Below are positions 26,720-43,264 of a stretch of 64,000 nucleotides of DNA, in pieces; the first letter of the stretch is position 1, and each line of letters begins with the position of its first letter. Location of the stretch: assembly GCA_965224025.1 (NCBI GenBank), contig OZ245033.1:1248001-1312000 (forward strand), given 5' to 3'. The notes under the pieces are model-generated. The model saw only the letters and a list, made by a program, of their open reading frames with translations. It was not told where the DNA came from and did no database searches. Source of the stretch: Candidatus Multivorans sp. (GTDB lineage Bacteria > Acidobacteriota > Thermoanaerobaculia > Multivoradales > Multivoraceae). A program made the translations under genes and the position numbers.

Positions 26720-28551
26720 CTAGCGAAGCAGCAGACTCTCGCCGAACCGCACGCCGATTGGCAGTCCCTGGCTGTCTCTGACGACCTCGGCGATCGTGCC
26801 GTGGTCGTCGCTCGCTTCGTCGAACCGGGCAGCAAAGAGCGCCGGGTCAACGCAACCGCCGGGCCGAGTCCGCAACCCATGGTGTTCGAGCTCGTCTCCC
26901 ACGCTCCCCCGGTCGCATGCGTCGAGCGGAAACCTCCGGTACGCCTCGGTCCGGGATCCTCCCCGGTCGTCCGAAATCCGAAGGCCCTCGGAGCTGATGA
27001 CGGTCGTCACCGTCATCGTCTGGCCGAGAACCTCGGTGAATTCACGCGACGCGAACTTCCCGTTGAGTTCGAGCTGGCGACTACTGTCGCGCCAGATCGT
27101 GTAGTGCATGTGATCTCCGCGCGAGTTTCCGCTGTTATTGGCGGTCCCAATCTGCTGGAAGGCCGCGACCGTATCTTCGACCTCAACACCGACGGTGTGC
27201 AGGTGGAGAAAGACGTGTTCCCTTCCAGCGGAGTCCACGATCCGCACGAAGTTCCCGTTAGGCGGGTATGTAGTCGCGAACGTTCGAGTATCCGGGTCCC
27301 AAGCGTTCGTGCCGTGGCCGCTCCCGGTCTCCGTCACACGTCCAGAAACTGGCGCCATCACAGCATCGCCCCGAGATGCACGAACATCGATGCCGCGATG
27401 AGACGGCCTTGCCGTGTTGCGACCTCCGTGGTCCGAACCGAGTGCGCGGTTGTCTTCCAGAGGGTTAGAAGAGACCCTCTCCGAGTTGACAAGTGAACTG
27501 GCATAGCAGGCGTCTATGGCGTCATCAGCCGGGTCGGTTCCGCCGTCGCGGTCATCATCGCCGCCACCGCCGCCGCCACCACCACCATCACCGCCGTCGC
27601 CGCCGTACCCATCACCCTGCCCACCAAGAGGAATGACGACCTCGATGCAAGAGCCTTCGATGACGATCCCGTCCTCCTCCTCGCACAAGAGCACTACGAT
27701 GCGTGGAGGACCACCCGCCAGCGGCGTCGCGACGTAGGTCACGGTCTCCGTAGCCGTCACGGTCAGGGAGTAGTCCCCGGGGCCGGGGTCGTACGGGTAC
27801 ACCACGACGCTGTGATTCCCCGCCGCCAGGTCGTCGCTCCAGGAGTCGTCCAGCGTGCCCCAGCGGTTCGTGCAGCGGCTGCTGCCTACACGGCAGTCGA
27901 AGTCGATCGTCAGGCCCGTCAGGGCGACCTCCACTTCGGCGGTCCCGGAGAGCGTGAAGCCGTGGGTCTGACCGGTCGAGACGCCCGTTCTGCTCACGTC
28001 GACCAGGGTCGTAACCCTGGTTTCGGTTCCGGTGCTGCCGCCGGTGCTCGGCGCCTGCACACCGATGGTGAGCGTGTAGTTCCCCGAGCCGCCGCCGTAC
28101 GGATACACCACGATCTTGTGATCGCCAGCATCGAGCGTGCCGCTCCATGAATCGTCCGCCGTGCCGCCATGGTTCGTGCAGAGATTGCCCGAAACCGGGC
28201 AGTCGAAGTCGGTCGTCATTCCGGTCAACTCTATCGACACCTCGGCGCGGTGGGACAGCGTGAGCGGATACGTCCTTGAACTCGACACGTTCACGCCCGT
28301 CTTCACGATCGGGCCGGTTGTCGGCGGCGGCGGCGGCGGTGGAGGTGGAGGCGGCGGCGGCGGTGGCGGCGGCACCGGGGCCGCGACGACCATAGTGAAC
28401 GTGACTGAATCGGTCGCGCCTGCGCTGTCCGAGACGCTGTACGTGATCGTGTAGGTGGTGTCGATCAGGACCGTCGGCAGCGCTCCCTTGGCCCGCCGCG
28501 TTGACGACGCGAACGCGGTCCCCGGAGGAAGGCCGGCCAGACTATAGGTCG
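26720..28551 (-). pseudogene. 5'-truncated orphan cassette of the polymorphic M23 protein (copy C)
   Basis: Homology to copy B starts abruptly at TYSLAGLPPG (~28551); no signal peptide; first ATG at 28393; HRGID...FLH...HMH M23 motifs. Confidence 0.78.
27723..28348. repeat. ~626-bp direct repeat (copy 1), encoding two PPC-like domains
   Basis: Matches 30752-31377 at offset 3029; only one mismatch noticed by eye (28208 G vs 31237 A). Confidence 0.92.
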
Positions 28552-28753: not shown

Positions 28754-29983
28754 TCATTCTTGCACCTTACTTCCGGGCGCCTGCTCTTCCTGTTCCCCGG
28801 CAGACGCGGCCTCTACCGGTGGACGGACCGGAACAAGATCCAAGCCGGACCGGCGGAGGTAGGTCACGCTCTCACTGTCTGCAGAGCGGCCGTTCTCGAG
28901 AACCGCCGAATGACGCCCGTTGGGACTCACCAACACGTCAATCCCGATCCCGCCACTAGGCGGCGAACCCGGAGTCCAGGCCGAAGCGTGGCGCTCCTCA
29001 AAGAGAGTCCACGGTTCACGCCACAAGTGCTCGATGCGGTAGCCGTCCTTCCCGTGCAGGACCCTGGCTGCCCCACGTTCGGCATGAGGCCTCCAACCAT
29101 CCTTGGTATCCAGTTCCCAGAACGGAGCGTTGGGGAACTCAGACAGGCCCAGGTCCCAGAGATGGTACGCGCGAAGCCTGCGACCGTCCTCGGCCCAGAG
29201 CACTTGTTCCTGGCTCTGCCAAGTGAAGTTCCATCGTGTCGACCCTTGAAGCACTGGCACTACATGCGGAGACGCTCCTTGGCTGAAATGCACGATGAAG
29301 CCGCCGCCACTCCACGGGACAAGCACCACAGGGCCACTCGTATCGAGGAACCAAAAATGACCCCACATCGGCAGCTCGCCCTTGTCCGAGTTTGGGAAAT
29401 CCACCAGTTCGACGCGTCCTGATGCCCCCGGCTTCCGAGCCGTCCTACCAAACGCGAACGTCACTCTGGCGCTTGTTTCATCCACTCTGCCGGCGTAGCC
29501 CCACATTCTGCCATCGCGAGAGACGATGGGAGCCACGCACTCTCTGCATTCCGGATCGTCCTCCCGGCTGTTCCAGCCCCATCGGAGTCGCACTGCGTCG
29601 CCCCGAACTTCAACTATGTCAAGCGTTCTTGCCGTGCGACCACCGATCGTCGGCCCACGCCACCCCGAAAGCAGAAGACGGCCGTCGCCTAGGAAGGTCG
29701 CCTGGTTGGTTCCCGAGTACGCTTCTCCAAGAGGGATTGCCTGAACCCGCTTCCGGCTCAAGCGAACCAGCGCCAAACGCCGTCCGGAGGACGCGAGCGA
29801 AGAGGCTCCAGCCTCTCCTACGGCATCGCCGTCAAGCGCCATTACTAGTTCTGTGCGACCGCTATCGTCCACAAGACCGCCAGCGTACCAGCTGCCCAAG
29901 GGAAGAGGCGTCACATCCGACGGCGACGCGGCAACGACCGTGGCGTAAACGGACCAACAGGCGACAGCAAAACCCAATGACAT
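28754..29983 (-). CDS. Secreted ~410-aa partner of M23 copy B (candidate immunity/accessory protein)
   Basis: AAGGAG RBS just after the M23 stop; signal-like MSLGFAVACWSVYATVVAA; paralog of 2371..3585. Confidence 0.75.
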   Translation of the reverse strand: MSLGFAVACWSVYATVVAASPSDVTPLPLGSWYAGGLVDDSGRTELVMALDGDAVGEAGASSLASSGRRLALVRLSRKRVQAIPLGEAYSGTNQATFLGDGRLLLSGWRGPTIGGRTARTLDIVEVRGDAVRLRWGWNSREDDPECRECVAPIVSRDGRMWGYAGRVDETSARVTFAFGRTARKPGASGRVELVDFPNSDKGELPMWGHFWFLDTSGPVVLVPWSGGGFIVHFSQGASPHVVPVLQGSTRWNFTWQSQEQVLWAEDGRRLRAYHLWDLGLSEFPNAPFWELDTKDGWRPHAERGAARVLHGKDGYRIEHLWREPWTLFEERHASAWTPGSPPSGGIGIDVLVSPNGRHSAVLENGRSADSESVTYLRRSGLDLVPVRPPVEAASAGEQEEQAPGSKVQE

Positions 29984-29996
29984 AGTGCTTCTCCTT

Positions 29997-31794
29997 CTAT
30001 TCTTCGCAACTGCCGGGATCGTTCTCATCGAAGGTGAAGTTCTCGTGAGGCAGAACGTCCAGCGGATTGCGACGTACTCCGTTGCTATCGCGGTGTCCCA
30101 GGTGCAAGTGGAATCCACCTGAGCTCCCGGGTTGCGTAAAGCCCCCAGCAGCATCGTTCGTCAAGCCGTAACCGTCGTAGCCGACGATCGCCCCTGCCTC
30201 TACTTGGCCCGTAACTTGGTGATCGGGCAGATTCGACACGTGGCAGAATACAAAGTAACTCCCGTCGTCCAGCGTGAGTTGCACGTAAGGCCGCCCGCAT
30301 GAACGCTCTTGGCCCGCGACTGACGGCCTTGTCACAGTGCCCGCCGCCGGGGCACGGAACGCGCTCCGTCCGTTCGTCTGGATATCAACTCCGCTGTGAG
30401 GGTACGTAGTTCCATCGCTCCCCGTCCTCGTTGCTCCATAGCGGTCGCCAGCGTCGAGGTTCCAGCCGCGGCAGTCTATCTCGTCTGCGAGTGTTCCCAG
30501 GGCACCGTGGGTCGGTGTCGGCCCGGGAGTACCACCACCACCGCCACCTCCATCACCTCCATCGCCGCCGTCCCCAGGCCCCGGAGTCCCTCACCGGGCC
30601 AGCACCGGGCGGCGGGCCCGGGTCGTCGCCCGGATCGTCGCCCGTCACGGTGGTCACATCGACGTAGATGCCCTGACAGGTGTCTTCGATGGCGTTCCCT
30701 TCCTCGTCGGCATCGCAGATGCGGCCGACGAGTGTTGGGCCGCCAGCCAGGGGCGTCGCGACGTAGGTCACGGTCTCCGTAGCCGTCACGGTCAGGGAGT
30801 AGTCCCCGGGGCCGGGGTCGTACGGGTACACCACGACGCTGTGATTCCCCGCCGCCAGGTCGTCGCTCCAGGAGTCGTCCAGCGTGCCCCAGCGGTTCGT
30901 GCAGCGGCTGCTGCCTACACGGCAGTCGAAGTCGATCGTCAGGCCCGTCAGGGCGACCTCCACTTCGGCGGTCCCGGAGAGCGTGAAGCCGTGGGTCTGA
31001 CCGGTCGAGACGCCCGTTCTGCTCACGTCGACCAGGGTCGTAACCCTGGTTTCGGTTCCGGTGCTGCCGCCGGTGCTCGGCGCCTGCACACCGATGGTGA
31101 GCGTGTAGTTCCCCGAGCCGCCGCCGTACGGATACACCACGATCTTGTGATCGCCAGCATCGAGCGTGCCGCTCCATGAATCGTCCGCCGTGCCGCCATG
31201 GTTCGTGCAGAGATTGCCCGAAACCGGGCAGTCGAAATCGGTCGTCATTCCGGTCAACTCTATCGACACCTCGGCGCGGTGGGACAGCGTGAGCGGATAC
31301 GTCCTTGAACTCGACACGTTCACGCCCGTCTTCACGATCGGGCCGGTTGTCGGCGGCGGCGGCGGCGGTGGAGGTGGCGGCGGCGGAGGTGGCGGCGGGG
31401 GTGGCGGCGGCGGAGGTGGCGGAGGTGGCGGAGAAGCCGGGGGCCTCACGGTAGCGGTGAACGTGACTGAATCGGTCGCGCCTGCGCTGTCCGAGACGGT
31501 GTAGACGATCGTGTACGCGGTGTCGATCCAGACCGTCGGCAGAGTGCCGCTCGCAACGCGCGTCGAGGGCGAGAACGTGATCCCGGGCGGCAGCCCGGAC
31601 AGGCTGTACGTGTAAGGCGTCCTCCCGCCCGTTGCGGCGGGGAACACCGTGTTGACGACGCCCGCCGACGGCAGCCGGAAGTTGGGGATTCCCGGCAGGG
31701 ACAACGCCGTCCGGTCGGACGTTCGCGCCGAGAGAGGCGCTGTCGCGGCCAGAAGGGAAAAGAGCGACATTAGTGCGATGCCAAGGCGCTTCAC
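29997..31794 (-). CDS. Full-length polymorphic M23 protein (copy B): signal peptide, He_PIG/Ig-like domain, poly-Pro, 2x PPC-like, Gly linker, M23; frameshift near 30590
   Basis: GGAGGT RBS and GTG start at 31794; first frame stops at 30553; another frame from ~30590 gives GDGGDGGGGGGG...HSGVDIQ...FCH...HLH to the stop at 29997. Confidence 0.8.
30752..31377. repeat. ~626-bp direct repeat (copy 2)
   Basis: Near-identical to 27723-28348. Confidence 0.92.
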
Positions 31795-31820
31795 GGGTCT
31801 CACCTCCCGAGGTGAATCAC

Positions 31821-32051
31821 GAAGTAATGACGAATATCTGCACCTGTGCGGGGCAGAAATCGGCCAAAACGGCACGATTCGACCCGTGAAGAGACTCCGG
31901 GCTCGGTGGCAGCGCACGTTTCCGGCCCAGTACGGCCTCAGCTCGACCCAAAACGGCCCTCAGAACCCCCGCTCGCGTCGCGCCGCAGGCCGCCGACACC
32001 GATTCAAGGGGTTGACAAGTGCCGCTTCTCGGAAATAATCGTCATTATATG
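31821..32051. promoter_or_regulatory. Candidate invertible promoter segment bounded by inverted loxP-like recombination sites
   Basis: GTAA-tgacga-ATAT (31824-31837) and ATAA-tcgtca-TTAT (32035-32048) have reverse-complementary spacers; TTGACA (32012-32017)-16 bp-AATAAT (32034-32039) lies inside. Confidence 0.65.
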
Positions 32052-32121
32052 CTTTGTCAAGTCCAATGCCCCACTGCCTTCCGGAGCGAGCACACCTTCC
32101 GGATCAAGCGCCTGCAGGCCG

Positions 32122-33053
32122 ATGAGAAAGCTGCTCCGAAGGGCACTCACGGCAGCTAGGTTGAAGTCGCTCAAGGCAGCGTTCTCGGACTCCTACTCAC
32201 CGAACACTCACAAGGCCTACGGCCGGGCGGTCGAGCGCTTCGCCGCGTTCCTGAAGGGCCGCGCGGCAGACGACGATTCCATCGCGGCCTTTCTGAAGGC
32301 TGAGGCGGAGCGCGGTCTGGCGCCGGCGTCGCTCTCGATCCTGGCCGCCGCGATCGGCGCCGCTGCGAGCTCAGCAGGGGTCAAGGACCCGCGCGGCCCC
32401 ATCACCCGCCGAACGCTCAGGAAGCTGAAACGAAACACGCCGCCCGGGGCCGCGGTCAGGTCGAGGGCCTGAGGCGGGAAACCGTGGTCGCCGCCGCCAG
32501 CCTCGCAGCGGACGAGGGCACCGCCCTTGGCCTGCGCGACGCCGCGCTGCTGCGCCTGGGCAGCGACGGACTTCTGAGGATCAGCGAGCTGGTCGCCGTA
32601 CAGGTGGACGATCTCGGTCCGAGGGAAGACGGGAGCGGCGTCCTGGCTCTGCCCAGAAGCAAGACCGACCAGGAAGGCGACGGCTCCACCCTCTACGTCT
32701 GCCGGGAGACGATGGCGGCCGTCGCCGCGTGGCTGAAGGTCTCCGGGATCACGGCCGGTTCGCTTTTCCGCCGCGTTCTCCGGAACGGGGTCGGAGGCGA
32801 CGCACCCTTGAGCGGGTCCGCCGTGCGAGCGATCATCCAGCGGCGGGCCAGGGCCGCCGGCGCCACCGGACGCGTGAGCGGACACTCTCTGCGCGTCGGC
32901 AGCGCCCAGTCCCTGGTCGCCGCCGGCGCCTCCACCGCGGAGCTCATGCAGGCCGGAAGATGGACCGACGCCGCGATCGCGACCCGCTATGCCGCGAACG
33001 AACTGGCGGGGCGAGGCGCCGTCGCCCGCTACTTCGAGGACGACGATCCTTAG
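32122..33053 (+). CDS. Cre-like tyrosine recombinase, frameshifted at ~32433-32435
   Basis: N-terminal SPNTHKAY; second frame RGRGQ...RDAALL...LLRISE, RSKTDQ, GHSLRVG, GRW, TRY gives the R-K-H-R-W-Y set; one base is missing in an AAA run. Confidence 0.88.
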
Positions 33054-42638: not shown

Positions 42639-42979
42639 GGGGCGCATCCTAGTCGGCGGCGTCACGAGGCGACAGACGATGCTCCGGTCGCCTCCCCCGA
42701 CCCTGATCCGGGCTCGCACGAGATCGTCGGTGTAGTCGACACGGAACTGGTGGTTTCGACTCCTGCCGCCATTGGCATGGACGATGCGCCAGACGTCCGA
42801 AGTCGTCTCGAGGGGCACGAGCGCGTAGGCCCGCCACTGAATCCCCCTCGGCACGGCAAACGCCGCCCGCAGAGCGGGCCCAACTTTTGGGTCTCTTCGA
42901 GGGTCGAATCGTGCCGTTTGGCCTGCATAGAATCGGCACGGTGCGCGGCGATCCGACTCAAGCCGTCGGCAAAGAGGCG

Positions 42980-43264
42980 ATGAAGGAACCGGATCGACGA
43001 GCACTCACCGCGGCGCTGCCGCGGTCGCTTCGGACCGAGTTCAGCGACACCTACACGCCGAACACGCACAAGGCCTACGACCGGGCGGAAGAGGCCCTCC
43101 GCGTGGGCGCCGCTCAGTCCCTGGTCGCCGTCGGCGCCTCCACCGTGGAGCTCATGCAGGCCGGAAGATGGACCGACGCCGCGACCGCGACCCGCTATGG
43201 CGCGAACGAACTGGCGGGGCGAGGCGCCGTCGCACGGTACTTCAAGGACGAGGAACGCGAGTAG
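42980..43264 (+). pseudogene. Internally deleted paralog of the 32122-33053 tyrosine recombinase
   Basis: RRALTAA...FSDTYTPNTHKAYDRA fused in frame to LRVGAAQSLVAVGASTVELMQAGRWTDAATATRYGANELAGRGAVARYF. Confidence 0.88.

Follow-up and report, generated by a model that had tools for sequence, protein, structure and literature searches.

Between a gene for a secreted peptidase and a divergently oriented gene for a tyrosine recombinase, the genome of Candidatus Multivorans sp. has a 328-bp intergenic region (31794 to 32122), and the pair of short inverted sites within it raises the question of whether a promoter can be turned there from one gene to the other. The region belongs to the window, i.e. 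the whole stretch of 64,000 nucleotides that was analysed (assembly GCA_965224025.1, contig OZ245033.1, positions 1,248,001 to 1,312,000), and the positions given below are those of the window unless a locus or contig is named. The host genome comprises 5.14 Mb in 3 contigs with a GC content of 67.6%. The MAG records of its close relatives bear the titles Candidatus Multivorans, Thermoanaerobaculia or Acidobacteria, and sponge metagenomes are among the sequencing runs containing the stretch. The initial annotation, made from the letters of the window, described the region as a loxP-like invertible promoter switch assembled with the effector OFF. An Rfam search of 31400-32400 gave no match.

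The left, effector-proximal core site (31821-31840) is composed of the outer arm GAAGTAA, the spacer TGACGA and the inner arm ATATCTG, and the right, recombinase-proximal core site (32032-32051) of the inner arm GAAATAA, the spacer TCGTCA and the outer arm TTATATG. Both are 20 bp long (arm 7, spacer 6, arm 7) and mutually inverted, with 191 bp between them and about 211 bp from centre to centre. The spacers are exact reverse complements, and the letters agree fully with the two arm-spacer-arm sites of the initial annotation. Besides the sequence and the inverted repeat, the left site is defined by its conserved position and covarying spacer in relatives, and the right site by relatives and by a mosaic breakpoint at the homologous site (locus L023 compared with L034). 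The label “loxP-like” has to be dropped, since lox-type sites have dimensions of 13-8-13, whereas here the half-site similarity ends after about 7 bp, the spacer has 6 bp, and the matched core of the sites amounts to 6 bp (8 at most, with the invariant A/T flanks included).

Judged alone, the inverted repeat is modest. Repeat detection returned inverted arms at 31825-31837 and 32035-32047 (13 nt, 92% complementary), and among 300 dinucleotide shuffles of the intergenic region a 12-of-13 repeat appeared in 7 and an exact 9-mer inverted repeat in 60. The motif TAATGACGA has two copies in the window, both at the two sites (0.08 expected; none of 100 shuffles reached two), and four copies in the 5.14-Mb genome. 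As the repeat alone is only modestly above chance, the case for real sites depends on conservation and covariation in relatives. The shuffling counts are the one point in favour of a chance likeness of two AT-rich promoter-like stretches in a GC-rich genome; this explanation is extremely improbable, given that the position is conserved, that the spacers covary in 21 distinct pairs and that the left site has no accompanying -35 box.

Two minor observations concern the sites themselves. The left outer arm ends with A at position 31827 in the window and with G in the strain of run X14, which is about 94% identical. The substitution is a mismatch in a column that hardly varies otherwise, and the strain keeps the right site as it is here. 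The outer arm and spacer of the left site recur as an exact 14-nt copy 1.26 Mb away (G000 C1:2544345-2544358), apparently within a coding region, and could be a chance match or a pseudo-site.

For the comparison, loci were gathered from genomes of the genus (MAGs titled Candidatus Multivorans or Thermoanaerobaculia), from named genome records and from metagenome contigs. The C-terminal part of the recombinase has relatives in 32 of the 36 other genus genomes searched, often in several copies, many of which are truncated. Wherever the upstream region is intact, the same order is found: effector start, left site, segment, TTGACA, a gap of 14-15 nt, right site, leader and recombinase ATG. The segment measures 149-212 bp in intact relatives and 54 bp in the decayed locus L046, and the leader has roughly 45-110 nt. 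This layout was found by script in 34 locus records, representing 21 distinct site pairs. In another 8 records (5 distinct loci) the right site is still there, and a deletion reaching into the effector gene has removed the left one.

The sites agree with the general design of tyrosine recombinase core sites, as all four arms resemble nRRRYAA and the spacers are asymmetric. Twelve spacer variants occur among the right sites, and the left spacer equals the right one at all six positions in 18 of the 21 pairs; the remaining three agree at 5/6 (L002 and L034) or 4/6 (the decayed L046). For example, L049 has TCACCC in both sites, and its close relative L032 has TCCCCC in both. The mean left-right identity is 5.81 of 6 for the spacers and 3.86 and 4.81 of 7 for the arms. 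When the spacer partners were shuffled, the mean was 3.55 and the maximum 4.62, and none of 20000 shuffles reached 5.81, although this count, like the other covariation figures, comes from loci related by descent and so is not a probability. In an alignment of 20 loci, the first 20 columns compared with the last 20 gave a covariation score of 0.383 against 0.163 after shuffling (0/500), and 0.04-0.13 with the partner slid. Between columns 8-12 and columns 264-268 all cells pair, counting as paired one G-U that is a DNA mismatch, and there are 35 double changes; up to 13 of the 20 cells are unpaired in the arm columns.

Matching so sharply confined to the site centre fits strand exchange by a tyrosine recombinase and not the requirements of an operator. 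In the operator explanation, the recombinase or another protein binds the sites to repress the recombinase promoter and the effector; the segment of about 200 bp may be looped in the process, and productive strand exchange does not take place. It would account for the overlap of the right site with the -10 box and start region of the recombinase promoter, for the single orientation in all assemblies and for a recombinase gene devoid of a Shine-Dalgarno sequence, which suggests tightly limited expression. However, it predicts conserved arms and a free spacer, and the reverse is seen: the arms of the left and right site differ, and the five variable central positions match within each locus and vary from locus to locus. 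Matching spacers are a requirement of strand exchange according to an excerpt of PMC10250229, and all catalytic residues are invariant in the orthologues, so the operator explanation appears quite unlikely. The conserved layout and the covarying spacers of 21 distinct pairs support the view, already expressed in the initial annotation, that the two sites behave as a recombination pair of the neighbouring tyrosine recombinase.

The layout is absent from a second recombinase subfamily of the genus (20 regions, 35-61% identity, other contexts), where only GC-rich chance matches of 11-13/14 were obtained. In the distant homologues L054-L100 and L107-L180 (29-43% identity), a similar pair of AT-rich inverted sites was seen at one Poribacteria locus only. 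This homologue, 38% identical, has an AT-rich 13/14 inverted repeat upstream of the recombinase with a distance of 308 bp (L055:1963-2295). The repeat surrounds, as judged by eye, an apparent small minus-strand ORF, and the divergent neighbour is helicase-like by its motifs; this gene context is unlike the Multivorans module.

The recombinase gene itself belongs to the Cre type. Its N-terminal part, containing a SAM-like domain (PF02899, E 5.6e-5; PF13495), is encoded at 32122-32472 on the forward strand, and the C-terminal catalytic part (PF00589, E 6.9e-13) at 32433-33053 on the same strand in another frame, open from 32304. One nucleotide is missing near 32432, and the frameshift leads to a premature stop, so that the halves lie in different frames; both halves of the orthologues are in one frame. 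In the strain of run X14, an additional base behind 32432 puts the recombinase back in frame. Separate contigs of runs X11 and X12 equal the window base for base over 31469-32700, which indicates that the frameshift is present in the reads, although these runs may be the source sample. A profile of 9 intact orthologues matches Cre over residues 23-309 (E 6e-25), and when solved structures were searched with it, the 17 sequences obtained were all Cre or Tre, a Cre derivative. The assignment to the Cre type is based on this full-length similarity together with the Phage_integrase and SAM-like core-binding domains. Residues R153, K181, H255, R258, W281 and Y290 are invariant in the alignment of the 9 orthologues and, by our reading of the motifs, would correspond to R173, K201, H289, R292, W315 and Y324, the catalytic residues of Cre listed in an excerpt of PMC10250229. 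No intact paralogue was found in this genome: the recombinase paralogues are three fragments, either 3' pieces or internally deleted, and a 50%-identical copy on contig 2 that has no N-terminal domain. The leader (32052-32121, forward strand) contains no Shine-Dalgarno-like sequence before the ATG and has no significant RNA fold (z-score 0.28).

The segment between the sites (31841-32031, 191 bp), outlined by alignment and by a block search in the genus, is the candidate invertible element; it holds the -35 box of a promoter and conserved blocks such as AACGGCACGATTCGACC at 31868-31884. The promoter is sigma-70-like, TTGACA-16-AATAAT (32012-32039, forward strand), matches the consensus at 11 of 12 positions and faces the recombinase. 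A consensus scan thereby agrees with the initial annotation, which had placed a promoter just inside the right site and aimed it at the recombinase. The same scan found this to be the sole promoter-like site on both strands of 31600-32300 and none for the effector in the assembled orientation, a result that does not cover other acidobacterial promoter types and that is in line with the annotated OFF state. The -10 box consists of the end of the inner arm and the first spacer base of the right site. Of 20 aligned loci, 19 have the full TTGACA and L049 has a gap of 2 bases in it, but all 20 retain GACA. At the first spacer base, with which the -10 box AYAAT is complete, 20 of the 21 distinct right sites have T and L034 has G. 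Since the -10 box is formed from this base and the end of the inner arm, the promoter would survive a crossover within the spacer. If the flipped segment is read from the sequence, AATAAT would end 26 nt before GGAGGTG of the effector ribosome-binding site (GGGAGGTGA, 31800-31808), close to the distance of about 25 nt given in the initial annotation. The region has the architecture of invertons, with inverted repeats bounding a short promoter-bearing segment and a recombinase nearby. In addition, a 16-nt inverted repeat (31784-31799 and 31881-31896, 88% complementary) represents a copy of the effector start region (GACCCGTGAAG) within the segment on the other strand; the copy is present in the nearest relatives L101 and L103 and not in L002.

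The gene that the flipped promoter would serve encodes, on the reverse strand, an effector whose N-terminal part (30553-31794, GTG start at 31794) includes a signal peptide, He_PIG, a proline tract and PPC-like modules. Three-frame translation revealed its M23 peptidase domain in a different frame at 29997-30590, also on the reverse strand (Peptidase_M23, E 1.1e-7). The orthologue in L021 is a single open frame of at least 778 aa; unlike it, the effector gene of the window is frameshifted, with the frameshift located between 30556 and 30590, within a GGN repeat. Downstream on the same strand lies a gene for a protein of 409 aa from its likely start (28754-29983), which has no Pfam hit. A protein-atlas search with this sequence returned, as a lead only, clusters of PD40-like beta-propellers from Acidobacteriota (0.93, 173 shared features). 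The protein is possibly a PD40-like beta-propeller, and it could be a partner or immunity protein.

A second PPC/M23 paralogue follows at 26720-28393, again on the reverse strand. The tandem PPC/M23 genes share a duplication of about 930 bp with 89% identity (27655-28549 and 30684-31611), and the homology reaches upstream of the annotated start of the ORF at 26720-28393, which suggests that the paralogue may be 5'-truncated. Long (GGN)n/(CCN)n tracts at 31300-31420 and 28290-28400 correspond to poly-proline linkers of 25-35 residues; Logan contigs break at these tracts, and their copy number in the assembly may therefore be uncertain.

Across the modules of the genus, the effectors have a common He_PIG/PPC N-terminal part and different C-terminal enzymes. 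Peptidase_M23 ends are found in the effectors of L025, L044 and L052 and in the genes of the window. The effector of L024 ends in an Aspzincin_M35-like HExxH domain with an E-value of 1.1e-6, just below the curated cut-off, and an M35-like HExxH motif was recognised by eye in the effectors of L034 and L049. With their swapped M35-like or M23 ends, the effectors resemble a polymorphic secreted-enzyme family.

Taken across the family, a real promoter-inversion switch is the probable explanation. The genus-wide module would comprise a Cre-type recombinase gene and a divergent operon for a secreted peptidase (He_PIG/PPC with an M23 or M35-like end), with a segment of about 150-210 bp between them, bounded by two inverted 20-bp (7-6-7) core sites and carrying the only promoter. 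The recombinase most likely binds four half-sites (approximately AGAYAA), and strand exchange within the matching spacers would invert the segment. Inverted sites with matching asymmetric spacers at a distance of about 200 bp imply that an active enzyme would do so. The promoter would thereby leave the recombinase gene and come to lie about 25 nt upstream of the ribosome-binding site of the effector, and switching ON would also strip the recombinase of its own promoter.

In Cre-type systems, as an excerpt of PMC10250229 states, the target sites are usually sought at most 1 kb away from the recombinase gene; an asymmetric spacer separates their palindromic half-sites, the spacers of two partners have to match, and the orientation of the spacers decides between inversion and excision. 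Cre/loxP, Vika and Dre share the enzyme family with the module. In contrast to it, sites of the loxP type are 13-8-13, single, and employed in the resolution or circularisation of phages and plasmids, while the module is chromosomal and multi-copy and has two inverted sites of about 7-6-7 around a promoter, their spacer consisting of 5 variable bases and one invariant T.

Parallels in architecture are provided by promoter switches. In E. coli, fimS with FimB and FimE is an invertible promoter element for the operon of an exported product. This element and the mrp element of Proteus mirabilis with MrpI resemble the module in having a short sigma-70 promoter element, short inverted repeats, an adjoining recombinase gene and an exported product. 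The differences are that the enzyme here is of the Cre type and not of the FimB/MrpI type, that a single promoter would alternate between the recombinase gene and the effector, and that the -10 box lies inside the crossover site. Furthermore, the cargo is a secreted peptidase and not fimbriae, the host is an uncultured sponge-associated acidobacterium, and the inversion is predicted. RecV of Clostridioides difficile and Mpi and Tsr of Bacteroides are tyrosine recombinases that flip promoter segments, acting on several switches in trans and generating population heterogeneity. Here, by contrast, every module brings a recombinase and a spacer variant of its own, an arrangement that would insulate the modules from each other.

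Integrons (IntI, attI, Pc) are similar in that a tyrosine recombinase diverges from the cargo, that a site and a promoter lie between them and that the cargo occurs in arrays. The structure search returned only Cre/Tre, however, and there are two inverted core sites instead of one attI and a recombinase in every module; on these matches and this architecture, the module is not an integron with IntI, attI and attC cassettes. The feature would be placed, with partial support from the comparisons, among promoter invertons with an adjacent tyrosine recombinase, as a variant of that known type. A literature search, not aimed at Acidobacteriota invertons or sponge symbionts, yielded nothing on this genus, on Cre-type promoter invertons or on such a module.

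If the switch works, a Cre-type enzyme and a new architecture, with the -10 box in the crossover site and the promoter shared with the cargo, would be added to the known promoter invertons, and uncultured sponge symbionts would gain heritable production of secreted peptidoglycan or protein hydrolases in part of the population. With its short half-sites and its 12 or more natural spacer variants, the family is also of interest for studies of recombinase specificity.

The copy in the window is a different matter. According to an excerpt of PMC7444556, mrpI recombinase mutants of P. mirabilis are locked ON or OFF, and by analogy the frameshifted copy would be locked too. The recombinase is one nucleotide short, the effector is frameshifted and the genome has no intact paralogue, which indicates that the copy is most likely a relic, locked with the promoter facing the recombinase and the effector OFF. 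Present-day phase variation in this genome, as implied by the initial annotation, is for the same reasons unlikely. With both genes broken, the decayed copy is best annotated as a module relic.

The flipped state was searched for in genomes, metagenome contigs and run contigs. On a scan of both strands, TTGACA stood on the recombinase side in all 27 rows with AT-rich site pairs, and two more rows were GC-rich chance matches. A flipped-junction pattern (the promoter and, behind it, a site with the left outer arm at its end), covering the TCGTCA and TCCCCC site types only, had 0 matches in 42 genus genomes, compared with 20 standard matches in 15 genomes; the backward controls gave 0. A scan for related loci in metagenomes kept 80 loci, including 6 close relatives (at least 67% identity), 4 of which had upstream sequence; all 4 were in the standard orientation, and a more specific flipped-junction pattern had 0 matches in metagenome contigs. 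Logan contigs of four runs (X11, X12, X13 and X14), which are consensus contigs that drop rare variants, contained no flipped joints, and in both X11 and X12 a single contig of 1468 nt covers the switch with no change; because of the dropped variants, this result is not weighed against inversion. The proposal of a phase-variable promoter inversion stands as regards the matched inverted sites around a promoter, and the flipped form that it predicts was not seen in any of the three sources.

A single hint of a flipped state was found elsewhere in the window. At 42889-42923, a 35-nt segment block, 97% identical to positions 978-943 of L002, is inverted relative to the recombinase remnant next to it and is followed at once by the leader of that remnant. 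The remnant is that of a decayed paralogous recombinase (42981-43264, forward strand) in which residues 1-38 are joined to residues 148-201. Six of the seven copies of the block in the genus are oriented as their recombinase, and only this one is opposite; its alignment score was 108.5 as reverse complement and 55.5 forward, the highest null score being 69. The block is bordered by a deletion junction on either side. The block is possibly a relic of the flipped state, and it is taken as a hint only. A colinear inversion extending across a second block at this locus was considered and rejected, as the gapped alignment was unconvincing past 35 nt.

An unregulated Cre-like reaction between inverted sites is expected to give about equal orientations. 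Set against this expectation, the one-sided orientation means that inversion needs extra assumptions: that the recombinase represses itself, that the ON state is costly or that one direction is favoured. A low OFF-to-ON rate together with a costly ON state would be needed for the uniform orientation, and the rate could be limited by autorepression, the right site covering the -10 box, and by a recombinase gene with no Shine-Dalgarno sequence. The short arms (about 7 bp), the 3 mismatched pairs among 21, the decayed state of the only inverted block and the breakage of both local genes also weigh against inversion.

The modules are multi-copy, the recombinase C-terminal part matching up to 13 times in one relative and often in truncated form, and this raises an alternative in which the sites are attachment or exchange sites that move whole recombinase-plus-effector modules, ON/OFF inversion being incidental or absent. 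The routes would be excision of a circle between right sites in direct orientation, tandem integration or cassette exchange. In one genome, three modules (L022, L023 and L034) stand in tandem on one strand with a spacing of about 6.6 kb, the first without a left site. L023 and L034 are 96-99% identical through the 5' end of the effector, the left site and the segment; past the right-site spacer, identity drops to 54% for the leader and to 67-76% for the recombinase. This change comes behind CCCCCTTAT, at the very core of the right site, and L023 compared with L024, which comes from a different genome, has the reverse pattern of identity. In this one clear case the right site has served as a crossover point, which fits module exchange as well as inversion. 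The genome of the window, moreover, is rich in deleted and fused remnants, including four recombinase fragments of its own, and the locus at 42889-43264 is a mosaic of two module types.

Mobility, on the other hand, needs one site per module, and it leaves the second site, inverted, spacer-matched and present in all intact modules 12-24 nt from the effector ribosome-binding site, unexplained. Other mosaic boundaries lie off the sites (that of L001 and L002 is near the recombinase start), most truncation junctions are inside gene bodies and point to illegitimate deletions, and a circular junction was not seen. As a replacement for promoter inversion, module movement is therefore unlikely. A combined reading, doubtful but conceivable, is that of a mobile self-limiting effector cassette, in which one 20-bp site is both the attachment point for module exchange and tandem stacking and one half of a one-promoter toggle, the other half being an inverted partner with a spacer specific to the module, and the -10 box lying within the crossover site. 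If it is true, a flip would hand the sole promoter to the secreted peptidase and shut off the enzyme able to flip it back, and a minority of cells would be committed to effector production.

Two more 3' fragments of the recombinase, 92-94% identical, were noted at G000 C1:1461152-1461427 and C1:2368297-2368491, the latter joined directly to an inverted piece of a PPC-domain gene. Both look like relics of decayed modules.
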